A DNA stretch of 64,000 bases, from contig CAWHAE010000009.1 of assembly GCA_963827235.1 (NCBI GenBank), forward strand, positions 384,001-448,000. Direction: 5' to 3'. Both the position numbers and the translations under genes were made by a program. Of this stretch, positions 45,334-58,202 are shown one piece after another. The notes beneath the pieces are model-generated. The model ran no database searches, was not told where the DNA came from, and was given only the letters and a program-made list of their open reading frames with translations. This stretch comes from an uncultured bacterium (GTDB lineage Bacteria > Chloroflexota > UBA5177 > JANWHV01). The first letter of the stretch is position 1. Each line of letters begins with the position of its first letter.

Positions 45334-45420
45334 GCGGAACGGTCTGGGCGCCGGGACGGTGGAGTATGCTGAAGGCGTCGTTCTCACTCCACCAGAGCAT
45401 CAGGAATGGATGGGCCGCCA

Positions 45421-46972
45421 ATGGCTGAGCAGGTGTCGCGGGGCAGGATTTCCACCGACGGTCCGTGGTTCAAGGACGGCATGGGCAGAACCTTGCTGCT
45501 GCGCGGCGTCAATCTCGGCGGCAGCAGCAAGGTGCCGTACAAGCCGGACGGCGCCACGCACCTGCGAGAAGGCTTCTACGACCATCGCGACGTCTCGTTC
45601 GTAGGCAGGCCGTTTCCCCTGCGGGAAGCAGACGAGCACCTCGAGCGTCTGCGCGCCTGGGGGCTCACGTTCCTGCGCCTGCTCGTGCCATGGGAAGCCG
45701 TGGAGCACGCCGGGCCCGGAATGTACGACGACGAGTACCTCGCCTATCTCCGCGCCGTGGTCGAGCGCGCGGGCCACCATGGGATCGACGTCTTCATCGA
45801 TCCCCACCAGGATGTCTGGAGCCGGTGGACGGGCGGAGACGGCGCCCCCGGCTGGACCCTGGAAGCAGTGGGCTTCGATCTCTCCAAGCTGGCCGTGACC
45901 GGTGCCGCTTTCACCCATCAGACGGTAGGAGACCCCTTCCCGCGCATGATCTGGTCCAGCAACTACGCCCGCCTGGGCTGCGCCACCATGTTTACCCTGT
46001 TCCTGGCAGGTAATGACGTGGCGCCTCGCACCACGATCGAAGGCGTGCCGGTGCAGGACTACCTGCAGAGTCACTTCGTCACGGCCATGGTGCGAGTGGC
46101 GCGGGCGCTCGAGGGGCTGGACAACGTGGCAGGCTACGACACGCTCAACGAGCCGCGTGCCGGCTACCTCGGCGTGCCCGACCTTGCCAGCCTGCGGGGC
46201 GCCAACTCCCGACTACGCGGTCCCATGCCCACGCCGTTCCAGGGCATGCTGCTGGGCTCCGGCTACCCGCAAGAAGTGGCCGTGTGGGACCACGGCGTCG
46301 AAGGCTACCACCAGGTGGGCACGACGCTGATGAACCCCGATGGCGTGCCGGTGTGGCGCCAGGGCTTCCGCGACGTCTGGCGCGAAAACGGCGTGTGGGA
46401 GGGCGGCAGGCTGCTGCAGCCACACTACTTCGCCCACGCCGCGGACTTTACCGACGGCTACATGGCGCCTTTCGTGGCGCGCTTCCGCGAAGCGATACGC
46501 GAGGTCGATCCGGAGGCCCTCATCTTCGTGGAAGGCGCCCCGGGTGGGAGGCACGTGCGATTCGCGCCCGATCAGGCCGGGGGCATCGTCAACGCCACGC
46601 ACTGGTACGACGTGCTGACCCTGTATACCAAGTCCTACCGGCTCGATCTCACGGAGGACTGGGAGACGAAACAGCCCGTACGCGGGCGCGAGGCCGTGCG
46701 GAAGTCCTATGCGGCTCAGCTCCGCGCCCTCCGGGAGGCCGGCGTGAGCGAGATGGGCGGCGCGCCCACGCTAATCGGTGAGTTCGGCCTGCCGTTCGAC
46801 CTCGACGACGGCGCTGCCTACCGCAGCGGCGACTTCTCCTCGCAGGTGGCCGCCCTCGACGCCTACGCCGCTGCCATGGACGCGAATCTGCTGAGCTTCA
46901 CGCTCTGGAACTATACGGCCGACAATAGCAACGAGCACGGGGATCAGTGGTGCGGCGAGGATCTCTCACTAT
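45421..46972 (+). pseudogene. GH5 endoglycoceramidase/steryl-glucosidase-like gene, 5' part (interrupted by integrative element)
   Basis: LRGVNLGGSSKVP, DPHQDVWSRWTGGDGAP, LNEP, HWYD, IGEFG and WNY..DN..HGDQWCGEDLS motifs; homology stops at EDLSL. Confidence 0.88.
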
Positions 46973-47005
46973 TGCAGTGTGGAGTGACTAGCGATATACT
47001 TCCTT

Positions 47006-48668
47006 ATGAGGGCAGAGAGATGGCCCCAAGGAAGGCAGGCACCAGTGGCAGCACCAGCACGACGGCCCGTCCAGCGTCCAGTCAGCGCAACCCGTGCGGC
47101 GGGATATCTCCGGGTATCCACAACGAAGCAAGGCGACGGGTTCAGCCCGGAATTGCAGGAAGAGGCAATCACCACCTACGCGGCGGATCATGGCCTAGAT
47201 CTTGTGCTTGTTGAACGTGACTTTGAGAGTGGACACCACAACGAACGGCCTGGTTATCAGCGCCTGCTAGGCATGATCCGGAGTGGCTACGTCGGCACGA
47301 TCATCGTGCACCAGCTTGACCGGTTGGGAGAGACAACAGCGGAACTGATGGTACGCCTGGAAGAGATGGAGAAGCTAGGCGTCAAGCTGATCTCGGTCAA
47401 GGAAGGCAAGCAAGAGCCCGGTATCCTGTTCGACGTGCTTGGGAGCATGGCCAAAGAATACTCGCGACAGCTAGGGAAGAAGGGCGCGACCGGCATTGGA
47501 GATGATGAGCGCGGCAAGGCGTGCACCACGGTGTTGTGCCGACAGGCTACAAGCTGGTGTACCCTGAGCGGATCGGAAGCGGGCGCTACCAGAGTGGCGT
47601 AATGACATCTGATGACACAGCACCATTTGTCCGCGAACTGTTCAGAAGTACGCGGACGGCATGTCACAGCGCTACTTGGCGCGATGGGCGAATGAGCCAG
47701 GACACCCGGCAGCACCGAAGAGTGCGGCATGGTCACGTGACACCCTGGCGCACCTGTTGCGCAACCGCACCTATCTTGGCGTAGTCGAGTACAACAAGCG
47801 GGCTAAAGGCCGGTTCAGTCAGTGCAACCCTGAAACGGATCGCTTCGTGGTCAAGGCCGATCACGAACCATTGATCGACCAAGCGCTGTTCGACCGCGTG
47901 CAAGCCCGGATAGCGGACGCGACCGAACGGGGCTTCCATGGGAAGAGAGACGAACGTCCGGAACCGCTGCTAGCGGGTGTCCTGCGGTGCGGATCGTGCG
48001 ACAGCAAGATGACCGTGCTGCGATGTGCGGATGAAGCGAAGCGGCAACCGCTGTACCTGTGGCGGGGAACGCGAGTGGTGAGATGACGTGCGAGACGTCC
48101 GCGATCACCATGGACGTAGCAGACAGGCCGTGCTGAACCAGATCCGCCGCGTGCGGTTCGTAGACAACTGGACGCGAGTACGCTTCAGCCGGTCGTGAGT
48201 GAACCCGATCCCCGTGACTTGCTGACCAAGCAGCTTGCCGCCGCACGGGCCAAGATGGAGAAGCTAAGCAGCGGCTTCATGCTGATGGTTGCCGAAGCGA
48301 GCGACGCGGAGAAGCAAGCCTACCGGAAGATCGCCAATGCGCTGAGCGATGAGATCATGGCACTGGAGCAAGCACTACGCGATCTGCCCAGCGCGAAGCG
48401 TGCGACAGAAGACGTCGAGGCATGGCGTGCAGAGTTCAGCAGGGTCGACCTAGGCGGGCTGATCGACGGGCTGCTAGCGACCGATCAGCGGGGCAAGCTG
48501 CGGCACGGGATCGCGGGAGTGGTTGACCAGCCACGATTGATGATCGCTTCCCGGAGAAGCGTTCGACGTGGGCACACGCTAGCGTCACGTGGTCACCCAA
48601 CCTTCAGGCTTTGGTTGACGCGGGTAGCGCTGTCCTGGCAGACGACGATCCGGGACCGGAGCGGTTGA
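47006..48668 (+). pseudogene. Large serine recombinase/integrase (multiple frameshifts)
   Basis: GYLRVST.KQ, ESG..RPGY, HQLDRLG, P.GY, LLRNRTYLG, HEPLIDQALFDRVQ, LLAGVLRCGSC and a coiled-coil C-terminus, spread over ORFs 47006, 47521, 47661 and 48195. Confidence 0.88.
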
Positions 48669-48746
48669 CCAAGCAACAACGCCGCTCCGTGGCAATGCGC
48701 AAGTACCGCACGAAGGTGCGTGGACAGCAATAGCACCGTCATTCTG

Positions 48747-48782
48747 AAGCCCCTGTGTCCCACGATGCAGGGGCTTTCTTAT
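48747..48782 (+). terminator. Intrinsic terminator after integrase
   Basis: AAGCCCCTGTGT-cccacg-ATGCAGGGGCTT followed by TCTTAT. Confidence 0.6.
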
Positions 48783-48968
48783 GCCCTGAAAAGGCTCGCG
48801 ATCACAAACCATTTTGACTTTTCGCTACGTCACTACGTCAGGTACCATACGTAGGTGAGAGCCTTCCGGACGTGGTACCACACCTCTGATACCCTTTTCC
48901 CATTTTCCGCTAGACGTGCAACAATGGCGTTATGGAAATTGCACAGAGGATTTAATTAGGGGGAGGGA

Positions 48969-49223
48969 ATGGACAGCCCAACGTTCTTGACCAAGAACAA
49001 GCGCGACTCCGGGCCGCGACGACCGCTGATGATCGGTATTCACGTCTCAGCGACCGAATACGAGGTGATCTTGCGCGATGCGGACGCGGCTGGCTTGTCG
49101 ATGGCAGCGTACGCACGACAGTTGATGCTGAAGAGGGGGCGGCTAGGGAGTGCTAGACAGGCAAGCGCACCGCGACCGGTTGATCCTGATGTTGCCCGGC
49201 GTGAGATCACCGAACTGTCGTGA
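48969..49223 (+). CDS. Ribbon-helix-helix (MobC/CopG-like) DNA-binding protein
   Basis: MIGIHVSATEYEVILRDADAAGLSMAAYARQLML pattern; GGGAGGG RBS. Confidence 0.65.
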   Translation: MDSPTFLTKNKRDSGPRRPLMIGIHVSATEYEVILRDADAAGLSMAAYARQLMLKRGRLGSARQASAPRPVDPDVARREITELS

Positions 49224-49802
49224 TTGGCGTTCGTTGCGGTGAAGCGGTCCGAAGCAAGCGCGGATCCGTATTTAGATCGAAAATCGGCAGTTCAGGGAGA
49301 AGGGTAGACCGGTCCAAACGAAGCCCGCATATCCTCGGGGGCCACGCTGATGGCGCCGGAATGAGAAAGACCCGGATCGGCACGACCAATGCCAATCGGG
49401 GTCTGAAGGGAAGGGGGCTACTCCCCTGCCATGTTCAACCACAAGTGTACACCAGTTGACGCGAGTTCGCGAGAGCCTTATCAGACTTCACTGTGGCAAA
49501 CCTTTCGGCCCGCATGGCCAATGCCGGTAACTTTCGATGGCATGCTCCTGGCCATTCCCGATGTCCTCCGCGATGGCGGGCCGATGCGTTACCCACGTCG
49601 CCTACGCCATCTGCGATAGCAGCGTGATCGCGCTAGGCGAAAGACACTCCGGCTGGGTCAATGAGCGCAGCAGCAGGAATGCGGTGCGTGCGCTGTGGTC
49701 AATTCGTAGGAAAGGCGTGCCACTGCGACCGCGACTGTTACGGGAATCTCAGGGATTCTGGAACAGCCGATCTTGGGGTTTCCCGCGCAAGAGCCGATCC
49801 CC

Positions 49803-50045
49803 ATGAGCAGCTATGCCAAGAAGCAGGAAGCGAGAATCGCTGCGCTGGAGGCCGCGAATGCCGCGCTCTTGCATGACAAGAACGAGTTTCAGCGCGAAGT
49901 CGAAGATCTTCGGCATGAGAATGACCGTTATCGCTTCCAGTTGGCGGGCGATGCACATGGTGAAGCGGAGCGCGAAAAGGTTGTGTGTGCGGCGATCATC
50001 GTGTCGCGCGGGATCAAGTGCTCTCTTCGGCATAGCGGCTCGTAA
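49803..50045 (+). CDS. Small coiled-coil hypothetical protein
   Basis: MSSYAKKQEARIAALEAANAALLHDKNEFQREVEDLRHENDR heptad pattern. Confidence 0.4.
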   Translation: MSSYAKKQEARIAALEAANAALLHDKNEFQREVEDLRHENDRYRFQLAGDAHGEAEREKVVCAAIIVSRGIKCSLRHSGS

Positions 50046-50124
50046 CGATAGTGGGCATGAATTTGGCAAGCGCGTTTTCTCCCGATAGCACACCCGTTCA
50101 TGTGCGTTTGGGCGACTTCGCGGA

Positions 50125-50664
50125 ATGAACGGGTTTGAAGCGCGAAGACATCGGGCTGGCAGTGAAGGTGGCACACTATCGCGAGCACGGACGCGATTAG
50201 TGTTCACACTGCCGCCTGGCCAAGGGGGGCTGTCCAACGACCGAGATTTACTCAGCGGAGGCGACGGCACAGTGCGCGATGCCGATGGCCTCGAGCTCTC
50301 CAAGGAAAAGGACAAGGCGCGTCATGCCAAGAAACGGGAGAAGCGGCGGGAGCAGCAGCAGATGATGGAATCGGTGCTGACGGAGCAGTTTGCGGTACTG
50401 GAGGAGGTGGCGGAGATCGCAAAGCTGGGGTGTCCTGCCTGTCGAGGTCAACTTCTTGGAACCGGCTATGCCTGCGAGTCATGCGGTACGCGATTGATGG
50501 TCGATCAAATTATGGTCGACACTGATCGCGGTGCGAGGGGGTTATTAACCGAGTTGGTGAAAAACCTCCCTACTCAGAAAGATCTAATTAGCACCACCGA
50601 GTCGGTGAGAAGCCACCAGCGGCATGGCATCATGCATATACCCCAGCGAAGGGCAGCGCCATAA
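50125..50664 (+). CDS. Hypothetical phage-like protein with CxxC..CxxC zinc ribbon (probably frameshift-affected)
   Basis: CPACRG..YACESCG; charged helical segment; LPPGQGGL. Confidence 0.4.
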   Translation: MNGFEARRHRAGSEGGTLSRARTRLVFTLPPGQGGLSNDRDLLSGGDGTVRDADGLELSKEKDKARHAKKREKRREQQQMMESVLTEQFAVLEEVAEIAKLGCPACRGQLLGTGYACESCGTRLMVDQIMVDTDRGARGLLTELVKNLPTQKDLISTTESVRSHQRHGIMHIPQRRAAP

Positions 50665-51605
50665 TGCACGCAGGCCTGCGCGACGTACTGCCGCGATGCC
50701 GTTGACGTGCAGGTTGGCGCTCAATGACCGGCGTGGCTGAGGGTGTACCCAGGTGTCTCAGAGGGGGGGCACGCAAATGGATTGCCTCAACGACGTCTGG
50801 AGCGATGGGTGGCAGCAGCGGAACGGGAAGCTGTAATATAAGAAACCTGGTGCTTAGGGCAACGGCCTAAAATATGGTTGCGCCACGGAAACGTCCGAAA
50901 AATCGATTCCAGCCGCGTGCTAATGAGGCACCCGCGCGTCCATGGCGTTGTCGCTCCATCGTACGGACCACGCTAATCCCGTTCGCATCACGGCAACTTC
51001 GTATAGGCAACACGAAGCGGAGGTGAAGCGGAGTGAAGACGAAGCAGGGAAGAGAGCCCGGAACGCCATGCCCAGCGCAAAGCAGGAAACATGCAGGAAG
51101 CTCACAGGGCGCACATGAGCGCAATCGCAGGCTGGCCGCTGGCAAGCGAAGCCACCGCGCCGAAAGCGTGTCCTGGGATGCAAATCGGGGTGCAGATACC
51201 GGCACTGTGGTAACTCCGGCATACATAGTGGAAAAAATTTGGTTAATGGCTGAGCCTGGTGGGCCAGCGTCGGCCGGCGGAAGGGCAAACTGACACTTTT
51301 CAGCGAGTGCGGCGCCAGATATTTGCAGGCAGTGGAGCAGAGGTGCCAAGGTATGAGCAGTGATTCTTTGAATAATAGAGATTCACAAGCCCGTGAGTGT
51401 ACTGCGGGGCCGGGGGCGGCGAAGCGCGCAAAAGAAGCAGCGGTGCGGGTGGTGGAGGCCGCACCAGCCCGGTTGCCCGGACGCGGCGGTCGCGTCGCAG
51501 CAGCTGGATGGGGAGCAGACCAAGCGCGGCGGGCGTAACCCGTCCACTAGGAGTCGAAAAGGCGGCGTTTTAGTCAGATGCCTGCCGCGCCGCTGGTCGC
51601 GGAAA

Positions 51606-51625
51606 TTTTTTTTTTTTTTTTTTTT
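51606..51625. repeat. 20-nt poly-T homopolymer (probable sequencing artefact)
   Basis: T20 in a high-GC genome, inside a stretch lacking coherent ORFs. Confidence 0.8.
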
Positions 51626-54249
51626 ATGCTGCTGTGACCAGAATTATTTGTTCATCTGTCGCGGAGAGAGAGAGCGAACAACGTAAGAAAATTAGGAAGG
51701 CGCTAGCCGCACTGGAGCGGCAGGGCATGGTGGTTGATACCAGGCGGAATGTCCGCAGTCGTAGTGAGAAGCGGCTGATTCAGGGCCAAAGGCTGAGGCA
51801 AGGGAAGATCCGGGTTGATGGAAGCGAAAAGGCGTTACGGTTCGTGCAGGAGCGGGGGCAGGAAGGAAAAATGATGGTTAGTCGGAGGAAGTTTGATGTT
51901 CGGCGGATTGCGCTCGTGCGCAAAAGCCATCGTCCGGTCAACAGCGCAAATTACTGTGGTCAAATCTAAAGTTTTTTTAACGCTGCAACAGGAAATCACG
52001 GAGCTTGTTTCGAGATGCTATTCAAGAGGCGTTGAGCCAGCGCACGCCATAGCGCCGTTGCGGGGGACATAGCGCCTTTGGCTGGCTTATGGCAGCTGAG
52101 CGGAGGCGGGCAGCGGTACTGAGAAAATTGAATGTCTTTATTTTTTCCAGAAGGCTTCACAGGTATATGACGGATGCGGTCAGGGTCGCGCTAAATTTTT
52201 TTTAAATTCAGCCGGGGGAACGATCCAGGCGCCATTTCCGCCATGCGCGCCTACATTCACAACACCTTCAATTTCTGCCGCAGCCGGTATACGCGGAGAC
52301 GGTCGCGAAGTAATCAAAGGCGAATTGGCGATCAGACAGTTCGGCGAACGGTCAAACACCAGCCCAGAATTGCCAATGCGAAAGCATCTCGGGCGCCGTT
52401 ATTTGTAAGAAAAATATGGTGGATGCTGAGTGTGGCATCTCGCCACTACGGTTATGGCTATCTCAGGAATTGCCGCCACGCATGAACAAAAAGCAGGCGA
52501 ACCGTTCGCCGGTCTGACGCGGAGATCATCCGCAGCGGGTTGCGGCAAGCCGGGCACACCGGCGCGGCGCCCCGTGCCTGTCGCGCTGCTGGCTATGGCT
52601 TGGTCAGCAGGCCCTCAGCCAGCGTCCGACTTCCCTGAGGGCGAACGGCGCCCAACGACACCTGCCTGCGTCGGCGTACGGACGTGGGCAAGGATGCCGA
52701 TACGGTGCCGGGGCTATGGCGGGCACGTCACAGTATATGCTCGGGCGCGGGAGTGAATGCAGGCAAGGCCTGAGCGCGGCGTTCCCCGGACGGCGGCATA
52801 ATTTGGCAGCTGCCTATGGCGCACCGCCAAATCGGAACGAAAGCAAGAATTGCTACCAGAACCCTATCTGGTGCCCGGGGTGGCTTGTCATCTTCCTTGC
52901 AGCCGCGTGTCCAAGAGTGCGCCAGAGACCTTCAGCCAGGCTGTGTCGCGGTTGTGCGCAGGAGGGTGAGCCATGAGCGCCACAGCACAACTGGTCGCAC
53001 GGAGGAGCCCCGGAGCCCCGTATCCCCGGCCTCAGCGCCCAACATTGCGGGAGGAGGCCTCGCGGGGCCTCATGGCCAATTCAACGCAGGGATGCAGCAG
53101 CGTACATCCAGGTTTTCCATCTCCCTCCTGTGGCCACATTCTCCGGAGCCAGCGAGCTGGCCGTGGCCGGGGATCGTCGCTACCTCCTTCGCGGGGCTGC
53201 TGACTCAGGGCCAACGATTCGTCGGGATACCGGGCTGAACAGCGAGGTGGTAACGCTGTCGGCGGTCGCGGGCGGTGTAAACAACCTCTACGTTGTTGCC
53301 TTCACACCCGCGAAGAGGCAATGACACGATCTCCGTAGGCGCGCTGGGATCACTGCTCCGCTGCTGTCGGTAGGCGCCCCGGCTGGGTGCTTTTCAGCTA
53401 TGGAACAGCCCGCTCTGCATGGCGAATGGCATCGTTGTGGCTGTAAAGGTACTCGCGAACGGCAGCGGCGCACCAGAACTGGCGCAGGTTTGCACTTTTA
53501 GCGTAGCGTGAGGGGGCAGGCGATGGCAGGGCAAAGAGAGTCTTTAACGTGTGACGGCGTAAGGCGCCTTATGGCGCGCGCAAAGCGAAATAAATAGGGC
53601 ATTTCCGCAGGGGGCCACTCGGAATCGTCGGCCATAACGCGTAGTAGCGTTCTGGGCTTGCTGGCTGATGATTCGCTCGGCGCCCTGCCGGCAGTACGGC
53701 GTTGCCGGAGCATACCGCCGTGGTCGCTTACTGCCGGCACAACACCTCACGGTGAACTCAGCCATAGGAGCGCGAACTGTGCAGATAGGTACACTAGCGG
53801 ATCGCTTCTCGACAGGCGTGGTTTGGATTCTTGCACAGGACGGAACGGCGTAGTTAGCGGGCTGAAGGATAAATGAGGGTTAGGGCGATGGCAAGCAAAA
53901 CCACATTCCCACGGCCTTGACATCGGGCGGCGGCTTCATGGGAAGTGGACAAAGCTCTACGCCGCACCAGAAACGAATCCCACACGGCGGACGGTGCAAT
54001 CTGTGTGGGCGTAGGTTTTCAACGGCGCAGCTGCGAGCGTCGTGTTGGGTGTCACCGCCCCGACAGATGGGCGTTGTTCGTGCCAGCGGGCTTAATCCTA
54101 ACATGGAGTTTTTGCCTTACGGGGTGGCAGTATGAACTGGGTGTTGCGGTAGCCGGAACTTCCTCGTTAACGGCAGCGGGGTACCTAGGGCACCACTGAC
54201 GGTCACGCTGACCACTGGTCTAGCGAGCGCTGAAGGGAAAGGGCAGGAC

Positions 54250-56260
54250 GATGCAGAGAACTTGATCCGGTGCAACAGCCTGTGAATATCGTCGTTGACG
54301 ATAGACGGGCTGGATGAGGCGCTGCGCAAGGCCGACGATATTGGAAGAGGTGTTGACGCGCCTAGGAAGGGTCGCGGCAGCGTTTCAGCGAACTTGGGCG
54401 CCTTCGGCGGTGGTAGCGGTGGTGGTGCTGGGGCGGTGGTCAGCAGGCTGTACAAGGCGTCAAGCCTTCAGGAGGAAAGGCGAGCGTTGCACAGCCCACG
54501 CGAGCGCCCGGCAGTATTCAGCGCCACAAAACGCATGTACTTATGGCAAACATCGCCAGTAGCTCGGGAGGTCCGGGCGGCTGGCTGGCGGCGGGCTTCC
54601 TGGCCCCTGGCCCTGGTGCTGCGGGCGGTGACGAATGGGCGGCGCTGGGCATCATCTCATCCGCTGGCGGCGGCGGGCGCGGCGGGCGCGGCGGCGGCGC
54701 GGGGGGATTCGGCGGCACGATCGACCAGGGCGGAGGTCCGGGCTGGGGTGCTGGCGGCGGTCAGGGAGGCGGTGCTGGCGGCGGTGTCAGATTCGGTAGC
54801 TTTCGGTGCGCCCGGCCCGAACGCGGGAACCTTCGGCCTAAAGCTGGAACAGTTTGGCGTCCGTGGCGACAGGCAGCAAGCTGCCCTGGTTGGGCTGAGC
54901 GGTGCCATTGCGCGACAGCTACTTACGAGCGGCGCACTCAGTGCCGTGAACGGCAGTCGGGGCCGTCGGGGCGACCATAGGCTATGCGAATTCCATGGTC
55001 GCGACTCAGGCACAGGCCAAAGAGTCGATGCAGGCTGCGCTGGGCGGTCGTGGAAGAGATAATGGGACCGACCTTCAGACCGGGTTGATCGCGCAATGGC
55101 TAACGAGTTCAAGCAGTCCGGGACGCTGACGGAGCAGCTTGCCCAGCAGTTGGGCCTCGGTGGCGTGCAAGCAAAGCAGGCGATGGGTATTGAGCCGACC
55201 ATGCTGGAATTGCAGCAGCGCACCGGGGCGAGCGCGGATACGTTCAGTGACACCATGGCCGCGATGTCCACGAAGGGTGCGATGTCAGCGCAGCAGATCA
55301 GCGATACCTTCGCGGAATTGTTCAGCCAGAGCGCGAATAGCAGTGTCAGCCTGGATGCATTGATCAACTCGATGGTCAGTCTGCAAGCTGCGACCAAAGG
55401 CACGACCATGAACTGGCAGTCTACTGCTCAGATGTCGCAGGCGATGAAAGCGCTAGGGCCGGGCTACAACTTGGGTCAGATGACCAGCCCCGCGATGTCA
55501 GCTACCGGGACGAATGCCTTCCAGCAAGCAGCGGTGATGGGCGTCACGACTGACCAGCTTGCGAAGTGGCAGGGCCTTGTACCTGGTACAGCGGCGAACC
55601 CCGCAGCGCTGTTCAATGCGCAGCTGCAAGCGCTGGCGCGACAGACGAAGGGCAGTCAGGACAGAAACGTATCGAGAGCGAAGAGCTTCTTGCTCCGCTC
55701 GCGGGCCTTGACCTCTCTACACTCTCGCCGCAACAGCAAGAGCGCATGATGATGATGGCGAACAGCGGGCAGTGGTCGAAAGCGTACGGGGCGATCCAGA
55801 CACCCGCGAAGCCGCCTACCGGGATACCGAACATCGCGCCAACCACGACACCGCAGGCGACGGACTGGTGGAACCAGTTCCTCCGCCGGGGCCAGACCTT
55901 CGGGACGCAACCCAATCCGGAAAGCGGGATTAACACCCTGCTAGGGATGTCGAACTGGCCTTCCTGGATGCAGGCGGCGGGCGGCGGCATGGACAAGGCG
56001 ATGGCGGCTCTTGGAAGCCTGCCGATCTTCGGTTCGGCTGGACAGAGGAACCCTTGGGCGTCACCGACCCCGGGACCGAAGACCGGGCCTGTCGCGCCGA
56101 CCTATCCGGATTCAACGTCCATGTGGACGTCGCGGTAAGCGGCGCGGTGACGACGCCATCAGGCCCCGCGAAGGTCACGGTAACGAGCACCGCCACGTCG
56201 CGCACTGGTCCGCCCAAGTCCACGGCGGGCTCCAAGTTCCCCATTCGAGGGACCAAATGA
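54250..56260 (+). pseudogene. Tape-measure-like Ala/Gly/Gln-rich protein, frameshifted
   Basis: Successive ORFs: IDGLDEALRKADD.., Gly-rich linker, helical Q/A/S/M-rich ANEFKQSGTLTEQLAQQLGL..ISDTFAELF.., ending FNVHVDVAVSG..; boundaries approximate. Confidence 0.45.
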
Positions 56261-56709
56261 CAATTCGCGCGACGCGGTGGCGCTTTCCTGCCGCAGACGC
56301 GCCTTACCCGTGGCGTCGGCAGCGTTTCGGCCCGCTGCCGGTGCCGCATCTCGTGGCGCGCAGGCGTCTTCTGCCTGCCTGCCGCCCCCTTCCCCGCTGC
56401 GGAGGGCCGGTCGCCTCGCACTCGTCCTGCGTGCCGGTCAGGCCCTCCGCCCCGATGCCTCTCTCGGGGCGGGACGGGTACCGCCTTCCCGATTGCCCTT
56501 CTCTTGCGGCAGGACGGCCCCGCGCTATCGTCATGGGCGGCGCCAGACTGCCCTGCCGCCCCCTTTCGCTTTCACCCCTGGGTCGCATGGCCCCCCTCCC
56601 CGCCGTGTGCGTCGGATGCTCTGCGATTCAGCTTCTGCGGCGGGCCTCTGTCGCCCCCCTTCCCACGAGGTGCCACACGGGCCTGCCGCCCCTATCCAAT
56701 GAGGCGACA

Positions 56710-57006
56710 ATGCGCGACGATGCACTGCTCAGCACCGCGCTTGCGATGGCGGTACCGCTAGCCCTGGCAGACTTGCGGCAGCGGGGCGGACCACGCGAAG
56801 GTGACTGGGCACAGGCGCGGGCCTTCGGTGAACGGCTGGCCTGTCACGGCGACGCGCCGCTGTTCCGCACCGATTCGGCAGCGGCACGGCAGGAAGGACG
56901 CGACACCGCCAGCATGTTCAACGGGCTCGTGCGTGCCCTGGCGGTACTGGCGTACTGTCCGGGAGGGGTGACGTTCCAGGGATTGCACTGGGAGGCAACA
57001 GACTAG
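56710..57006 (+). CDS. Small phage-type hypothetical protein
   Basis: GAGG RBS; LAMAVPLALADLRQRGGP..HGD..FNGLVRALAVLAYCPGGVTFQGLHW resembles a small prophage protein family (from memory, unverified). Confidence 0.55.
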   Translation: MRDDALLSTALAMAVPLALADLRQRGGPREGDWAQARAFGERLACHGDAPLFRTDSAAARQEGRDTASMFNGLVRALAVLAYCPGGVTFQGLHWEATD

Positions 57007-57870
57007 CGCGCGATTGAAGCGGGAGCGGGGCCCAGGTCTGAAGCTGGGTACGCTGCCTGGAAGGACGGGGAGGCAGTGACATTCGTAGCGAGGACTGCCG
57101 AACTGTCCATCGGCCCCTGTCCCCCTTTGCCGGTTGCGGAGTGGGCGGGGGCCTCTTCACGCTTCCACCGCTGTATCCTCCAGGGGGAAGGACGTCCGCG
57201 CCTTCGCGACGGCGGAGCGGGTGCGTGGTACCACCGTTCTGTCACGAGAAAGGACGACACACGGACGTGCCGCCCAGTGATGGCCCCCTCGCGCCGGCTC
57301 TGTCGGGGTTCGCAGCGTGAGGGGGCCGTTCCGCGCCTGTCCCCGCGCCCTGCCGGTCTCATCCGTATGCTCAAACTGCGGCATGGGATGGGAACGGTAC
57401 CGAACTCTACAGTACCAGAGGCAGCGGAGCATTGGTGCTCCCCGCGCCGTCGCCTTCCCCGGCAGACGATGACGGGTAGGGGTGTACTGTGTGCTGCTGA
57501 CTGTTCGACAGTGCCTAACGTTTGCTGCTGCTGCGAGTAGCGCCGTTGTGTGCGCTCCATCGCTGGCGCCGTCGTGGTAGCGCCGTGCACGGTCGTATGT
57601 GTGTGCCTGCCGTGCGGCGATGACCGCAGTGCAGATCGGCAGCAGTACCTACGCTGCGGTGTTCATTGGATTCGCTGCGTGCTCATGGCGCGTCGCATGG
57701 CGGGGCGCGGAATGCGGGCGTCGTGCTGGCAGGATGCGATAGCCATGTCCTGCGCTCCCGTGCGCCAGACGCGAACGTCGAGAGCCGTAGGGTGCGCTGG
57801 CAAGGGGTGCCGTGCTGGTGCCGTGCTGGACAGATATAGTAAGTCACGCGTCACAGGGTATAGTTCGCTG

Positions 57871-58202
57871 TATATTCCCCCGATCAGCGCGCGAACCCGT
57901 CGGACATAAACTCGGGCGGCCGGGCCCTCGAAGGCATCGTGCGCCCCTATGCTCTGGCCACGGCCGGCACGCCGCTCTCCATGCACTTCGATCTGGCCAC
58001 GCGCACGTTCGAGCTCAGATTCCGGGCAGACCCCGCGGTGCCCGCTCCGACGGAGATCTTCGTGCCACGGCTCCAGTACGCTGGCGGCTACAGCGTGACC
58101 CTCTCGGAAGGCCGCTACGAGCGGGCCGACGAGCGCCAGGTGCTGATCGTGCACGGACCCGGCGACGAGCGCGAGGTCACGCTGCGTATCGCGCCGTCAT
58201 AG
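57871..58202 (+). pseudogene. GH5 endoglycoceramidase-like gene, 3' part
   Basis: YSPDQRANPSDINSGGRALEGIVRPYALATAGTP..PTEIFVPRLQY, the expected continuation and C-terminal beta domain. Confidence 0.88.

Follow-up and report, generated by a model that had tools for sequence, protein, structure and literature searches.

Attachment sites (attB) whose occupation disrupts a gene are common among those of the large serine recombinases (LSRs), for which thousands of LSR-attB pairs have been catalogued by comparing occupied with empty sites, 82.8-88.3% of the clusters being site-specific (Durrant et al. 2022, PMC10083194). In serine integrases, the asymmetry of the central dinucleotide determines polarity: sites synapse either way and only the matching alignment is religated (PMC3783163), and only six orthogonal pairs of central dinucleotides are usable (PMC4111918). 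Some insertions of this kind, the skin, SPbeta, and gin elements, act as switches of sporulation genes in terminally differentiating cells (PMC5595907, PMC4191935, PMC5499854, PMC5025042). Here, we describe a serine-integrase element inside a GH5 gene of an uncultured member of the Chloroflexota, located in a window of 64,000 nucleotides (the whole stretch of DNA analysed: contig CAWHAE010000009.1 of assembly GCA_963827235.1, positions 384,001 to 448,000). With a probability of about 0.8, we regard it as a phage-like element of ~10.9 kb that was integrated in the GH5 coding sequence by site-specific recombination through its own serine integrase, and whose frame breaks are probably consensus errors.

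The interrupted GH5 gene and the integrase of the insert

The left junction reads GATCTCTCAC-TAT-TGCAGTG, with TAT at 46970-46972 of the window, and the right junction reads TTCGCTG-TAT-ATTCCCCCGATCAG, with TAT at 57871-57873. The spacing between the two TAT copies is 10,901 bp, and identity between the junctions is limited to these three bases, the adjoining bases differing on either side. At these same coordinates an exact interruption of the gene had been proposed in an earlier inspection of the window made without database searches (hereafter, the sequence-only reading). Its further claim, that excision at TAT would rebuild an open reading frame (ORF) of ~626 aa containing EDLSLYSPDQ, is borne out residue for residue by P0003, the closest intact GH5 homolog found (631 aa, 85% identical, encoded on a 2.7-kb metagenome contig), which across the joint reads ...HGDKWCGEDLSLYSPDQRTDP... 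/ ...CGEDLSLYSPDQ... = EDLSLYSPDQ, the same as the restored peptide. The locus is composed of the following parts:

45406..46972, plus strand: N-terminal part of the GH5 gene, 522 codons, likely start M6 = 45421 (PF00150; P0003; PDB 8exd, 7lpo)
46970..46972, no strand: core copy (TAT) in attL, one of the two copies of the only bases common to both junctions
46973..57870, plus strand: inserted element, 10,898 bp long without its flanking core copies, present once in the genome and poorer in ORFs than any other part of it
47006..48733, plus strand: large serine integrase with Resolvase, Recombinase, Zn ribbon, and C-terminal region, recognized by domain matches and the motif YLRVSTTKQ, broken as assembled
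57871..57873, no strand: core copy (TAT) in attR, the counterpart of that in attL
57874..58202, plus strand: C-terminal part of the GH5 gene, starting with the two remaining bases of the interrupted Tyr codon and continuing through 108 codons to the stop (PF18564; P0003)

The N-terminal part aligns with residues 1-518 of P0003 at 85% identity and the C-terminal part with residues 520-626 at 77%, the joint being ungapped and residue 519 (Y) corresponding to the codon that the insert divides. If the M at residue 6, aligned to M1 of P0003, is taken as the start, the restored protein has a length of 517+1+108 = 626 aa. The ungapped motif W..ED[LIVM]SxxS spans the joint in 115 of 119 homologs (P0003-P0121), the pattern being unmatched in the other 4, and not one of the 119 needs extra residues between EDLS and YSPDQ. 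Because such residues were what the sequence-only reading had named as speaking against a precise interruption, that claim stands, and it is confirmed that the serine-integrase element sits precisely inside the GH5 gene. The frame of the N-terminal part runs from 45406 without a stop to the joint and holds the complete catalytic domain (PF00150, E 2.3e-14), and that of the C-terminal part (57876-58199, 108 aa, stop at 58200) encodes a GH5_C beta-sandwich (PF18564, E 1.5e-22). As assembled, the N-terminal frame continues for 80 junk codons into the insert (46973-47214), overlapping the start of the integrase in another frame; given this overlap, the integrase lies, in the integrated state, directly downstream of the promoter of the host gene.

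The integrase starts at 47006, 33 nt inside the left core, and reads inward in the same orientation as the 5' part of GH5. Its Resolvase domain (PF00239) is matched at E 1.4e-25 and 90.6 bits, the motif YLRVSTTKQ being present, and its Recombinase domain (PF07508) at E 4.5e-16 to 1.7e-19 and 59-70 bits in the window piece. The Zn ribbon (PF13408) scores 19.4 bits, below the cut-off of 25.3, in the window piece, through which a frame break runs, and reaches 43.2 bits in P0122, a near-identical fragment from another assembly. Judged by domains and motif, the enzyme belongs to the family of large serine recombinases, with a predicted recombination activity, and we take the Ser of YLRVSTTKQ to be its catalytic nucleophile. 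As assembled, the gene does not form one continuous open frame of about 450-600 aa: it is interrupted by at least six breaks, and all three frames are used.

The sharing of 3 bp between the junctions, without a target-site duplication, is what is expected of a serine, not a tyrosine, integrase, and since identity is limited to TAT, crossover can take place only at TA or AT. In the mechanism that we propose, the integrase would make 2-bp staggered cuts within the TAT shared by attP and attB, the latter presumably lying in the conserved coding motif GEDLS(L/I)(Y/F)S. A swap of half-sites would then yield attL (46970-72) and attR (57871-73) without target duplication, such that the break in GH5 would fall behind the catalytic barrel, and the C-terminal beta-sandwich domain would be stranded 10.9 kb downstream without a start codon; excision would require the integrase and a directionality factor. 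Near the two ends of the element there is also an 18-nt inverted repeat, 83% complementary, whose left arm (47051-47068, ~80 bp inside the left end) lies within the integrase coding sequence and whose right arm (57804-57821, ~50-65 bp inside the right end) lies in a tandem 11-mer, GTGCCGTGCTG x2, at 57807-57828. This repeat may be a product of chance in GC-rich DNA, or a putative binding site flanking attP in the circle.

As to the host gene, sterylglucosidase A (8exd) aligns with residues 10-525 of P0003 at E 1.3e-129, the Cryptococcus enzyme 7lpo matches this homolog at E 2.8e-113, and there is a weaker match to endoglycoceramidases, through the C-terminal domain of P0003. The label of GH5 glycolipid hydrolase, given in the sequence-only reading, is thus reasonable by homology, with steryl glucoside or glucosylceramide as the predicted substrate. 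The named GH5 homologs are from Chloroflexota or Anaerolineae. The gene is flanked by hydrolase genes on one side and by a convergent ABC sugar-transporter operon on the other. It was not found in 4/4 genomes of the same genus (83-92% complete) and, on this account, is classed by gene content as accessory. A survey of 40 relatives gave no more than two strong matches (57-58% identical), and no second GH5 copy or empty-site contig is present in this genome assembly.

Frame breaks in the insert and competing explanations

A search for integrase relatives among 1.84 billion representative proteins returned two near-identical fragments from another assembly, P0165 (N-terminal part, 268 aa) and P0122 (C-terminal part, 326 aa), the next match being 43% identical. 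In a frameshift-aware alignment of these fragments to the window, by which the breaks were placed, 263 (P0165) and 322 (P0122) codons are matched with 13 and 10 mismatches, respectively; the copy that they represent is ~97-98% identical. The breaks specific to the window, near 47508, 47645, 48061, 48126, 48170, and 48529, consist of one missing base in 6/6 cases; there is no insertion and no longer deletion among them, and each frame step is -1. A short scrambled stretch occupies 47470-47490 of the window, and near 47740 there is a further break that affects the other copy and is absent from that of the window. The GH5 halves have 0 breaks in 1,891 nt versus ~6.6 expected at the integrase rate (6 in ~1,725 nt), for which our own arithmetic gives P ~0.001 if GH5 and integrase had decayed alike.

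In a scan of the 7.98-Mb genome by cover with ORFs of at least 200 aa in 3,919 windows of 8 kb, those of the insert rank 1 and 2 for ORF poverty (0.27 and 0.28 vs a median of 0.93), and 5/7 of the next most ORF-poor overlap or adjoin the two rRNA operons. The third-position GC signal is strong in the flanks and weak or absent in the insert, whose GC ranges over 0.53-0.70 (500-nt windows) compared with 0.63-0.70 in the scanned flanks; there is no codon periodicity over 51-54.5 kb, and the longest ORF of the insert has at most 331 aa in 10.9 kb. A count of stop-avoiding shifts, which addressed whether -1 shifts alone would suffice for the remainder of the insert, was not discriminating (plus strand 43, minus strand 48, shuffles 64 +/- 5). 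In the same assembly, the integrase (581 aa) and a tail protein (698 aa) of a second serine-integrase element are intact. Taken together, the single-base deletions, the intact GH5 halves, and the ORF-poor insert point to a locally poor long-read consensus, and we consider it probable that the integrase breaks reflect not decay but consensus errors in a stretch where coverage or polishing was poor. Such a consensus would fit a region missed by polishing, or an insertion that only some members of the sampled population carry, and if the breaks are errors, the element may well be intact in cells. Next after the insert and the two rRNA operons, ORF-poor stretches of the same genome (G000) are found on its contigs at C14:447-459 kb, C12:264-278 kb, C10:919-931 kb, C17:58-69 and 92-102 kb, and C10:82-94 kb, and these might be mobile elements with the same consensus problem.

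If the breaks were real, the element would be the dead remnant of an old insertion, its integrase and cargo truly decayed by frameshifts and GH5 permanently inactivated or reduced to a truncated enzyme. This possibility, which we hold to be unlikely but deserving of weight, would account for the number of integrase breaks (at least six), for the shortness of the ORFs, and for the missing codon periodicity; the other copy, P0165/P0122, is also broken, and the N-terminal part of GH5, with its full catalytic domain, could be kept by selection. It sits poorly with the uniformity of the six placed breaks, all of them 1-base deletions, and with their absence from a copy so nearly identical. The 108-codon C-terminal part, of no further use if the split were permanent, remains open and 77% identical to P0003, and the remaining genome is clean. 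A chimera, in which the assembler wrongly placed the insert within the gene, is barely conceivable: the error profile of the insert is unlike that of the rest of the contig and the contamination of the bin is 9%, but a misjoin would not hit a 3-bp overlap that restores a codon, and the start of the integrase 33 nt from the joint is the layout expected of a real attL.

The sequence-only reading had also raised a reversible gene switch, in which condition-dependent excision by the integrase and a directionality factor restores GH5, as in skin/sigK and SPbeta/spsM. By sequence logic, excision at TAT would rebuild the frame exactly, and both GH5 halves are intact; such precise restoration is, however, true of every serine-integrase insertion into a gene, following as it does from the recombination chemistry, and is thus no evidence of regulation. 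The integrase is just downstream of, and co-oriented with, the 5' part of GH5, and the noisy consensus, if due to low depth, may mean that the insertion is polymorphic in the sampled population. P0122 is encoded on one ENA contig, whose length of 11,335 bp is near the element size of 10,901 bp; as a lead, this contig could represent the element as a discrete unit elsewhere, a free or circular form, or an element assembled apart from its host. On the other side, library scans recognized no directionality factor, the integrase is frame-broken as assembled, the genome assembly holds no empty-site copy, no excised circle was seen, and a sugar-lipid hydrolase beside an ABC sugar transporter, accessory by its absence from the same-genus genomes, is unlike the terminal-differentiation genes of the known switches. 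Regulated excision is therefore unsupported, and we hold a switch to be very improbable. Improbable, too, is the combined proposition that the element is intact and mobile, present in only some cells, and reversibly silencing GH5, with its integrase behind the host promoter and a self-complementary crossover dinucleotide; if this were true, a feature outside the core would have to determine orientation.

Integration of a largely undecayed phage-like element remains our preferred reading, and several observations weigh against it. Over about 5.5 kb of the insert (48.7-54.3 kb), stop codons are as frequent as in shuffled sequence, and the integrase is not open as assembled. The substitution difference from the other copy is estimated at ~1%, for which 6-9 indels would be high for natural decay, yet possible, and the argument from intact flanks is weakened in that the N-terminal part, with the whole catalytic domain, could stay under selection. 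The cargo is essentially unannotated after Pfam, PHROGs, and NCBIfam scans, and no close integrase relative was found at the same or another site in genome, viral, or metagenome contigs or in 400 Chloroflexota genomes. Both possible crossover dinucleotides, TA and AT, are self-complementary and so lack the asymmetry on which polarity depends; by the standards of the family, such a core is unexpected. Lastly, neither attP nor attB has dyad symmetry above chance. The imperfect inverted repeat that the sequence-only reading saw at the attP centre pairs at 5/7 positions, and at 10/22 on that axis, which is no better than chance: over the 25 axes scanned, the core axes pair 2-7 of 25 positions in attP and 5-7 of 25 in attB, the best of the 25 axes reaches 10/22, and random window positions pair 6.8 +/- 2.3 of 25, although bases missing from the insert arms could hide some symmetry.

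Cargo and relatives of the element

Apart from the integrase, the insert contains the following features:

48969..49223, plus strand: 84-aa ribbon-helix-helix protein, NikA-like (PF21983, 30.8 bits, cut-off 27)
50089..50661, plus strand: open stretch with a CxxC...CxxC zinc ribbon, closest in the Atlas to clusters of unnamed viral proteins (no more than a lead)
51585..51625, plus strand: terminator-like feature, a GC-rich hairpin with a 20-T run after it, located where the GC of the insert is lowest
54286..56135, plus strand: tape-measure-like or minor-tail-like pieces in three open stretches (PF10145 below cut-off; Atlas lead)

The NikA-like protein may act as a regulator or as an accessory protein of a relaxosome. 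The tape-measure-like pieces match PF10145 at E 0.004-0.008, below the cut-off, and in the Atlas 12/30 of their matches are PF10145 clusters, the best of those having rank 10 and a score of 0.93; tblastn gave no match for the piece in phages and none among longer proteins. Within this region, a GGC-rich direct repeat at 54663-54784 encodes a Gly-rich stretch. The 20-T run at 51585-51625 is the longest homopolymer of the insert, in which runs of at least 5 are ~3-fold commoner than in the genome. Scans of the whole window with Rfam (gathering thresholds) and for tRNAs gave 0 matches, and those for promoters and terminators gave no more than the shuffle level. No directionality factor was recognized by Pfam, PHROGs, and NCBIfam (75 + 57 + 44 open stretches), but with such factors being diverse and the frames broken, one may have escaped recognition. 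We read the insert as a putative small phage-like element, whether satellite or defective prophage.

Beyond the two near-identical fragments, relatives of the integrase are distant, the nearest full-length ones being ~37-43% identical. A peptide-pattern search detected no close relative in genome contigs or viral contigs, and in metagenome contigs only a 40%-identical fragment (L010). Among 40 relatives, the best match outside this genome is in G001, a genome of the same genus (40% identical, E 1.9e-45), the others being much weaker, and among 400 Chloroflexota genomes only G001 matches at E <= 1e-30. The genomes compared here included G018, flagged as unpublished, which enters into the counts alone. 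The suggestion of a new attB/attP pair is accordingly upheld in part: no integrase above ~43% identity was found apart from the two fragments, but these apparently come from the same element in another assembly. Within its own genome the element is single copy, and when the insert was compared by tblastx with the remaining genome, only an integrase paralog and low-complexity noise were returned.

That paralog belongs to a second serine-integrase element, which lies outside the window (locus L023, contig C9:1,106,001-1,126,000 of G000):

C9:1,119,904-1,121,649 (L023 13904-15649), minus strand: intact 581-aa integrase of the second element

The integrases of the two elements are 37-42% identical, and both elements have a tail-measure-type gene, represented in the second by a 698-aa PhageMin_Tail protein at L023 10484-12580. 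An AAA_25 protein is spread there across two ORFs (L023 2351-3172 and 1579-2358). Differing from the element described here, the second has its integrase and tail protein open and its neighbouring host gene whole, and it shows no other tblastx similarity to the insert cargo. The notion that it also splits a gene was rejected, the neighbour being whole in 15 other genomes. In G001, the 40%-identical integrase is ~14 kb from the ortholog of that neighbouring gene, and for this reason the second element may be older and syntenic.

Comparison with known serine-integrase systems

Serine integrases with known attB/attP pairs serve genome engineering, and the integrase described here is distant from even the nearest of its full-length relatives and comes from a little-studied phylum. 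If its TA/AT core is real, it would present an unusual case for the setting of polarity. The locus also calls for caution in annotation, because an apparently split gene and a seemingly dead element may both arise where an insertion is polymorphic and the consensus across it is locally poor. As for the target, the Chloroflexota GH5 resembles, through P0003, SglA (8exd), Sgl1 (7lpo), and endoglycoceramidase II (2osx), with the endoglycoceramidases alike in the C-terminal domain; these solved enzymes are fungal or actinobacterial, whereas the one here is from Chloroflexota and has a substrate predicted by homology.

In comparison with LSR integrases of the phiC31, Bxb1, and A118/LI type, the element shares the order of Resolvase, Recombinase, and Zn ribbon, the Ser motif, an integrase gene abutting the att site, a very short core, the lack of a target duplication, and a conserved coding target. 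It differs from known LSRs in that even its closest full-length relatives are only ~37-43% identical, in that only a self-complementary dinucleotide is available to it, and in that its frame is broken as assembled; in addition, its host is a member of the Chloroflexota, and its target family, GH5 with GH5_C, is not named in the available text of the LSR catalogue (PMC10083194). Like skin in sigK (SpoIVCA), SPbeta in spsM (SprA-SprB), and gin in gerE (GirC-GirX), it is a serine recombinase element that splits a coding sequence. In those systems, excision was shown by experiment, takes place in connection with sporulation, and requires a directionality factor that is itself regulated (PMC5595907, PMC4191935, PMC5499854, PMC5025042), whereas the host gene here would encode an accessory catabolic enzyme. 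Set beside both groups, the case is that of an otherwise ordinary integration of a mobile element in a conserved coding site.

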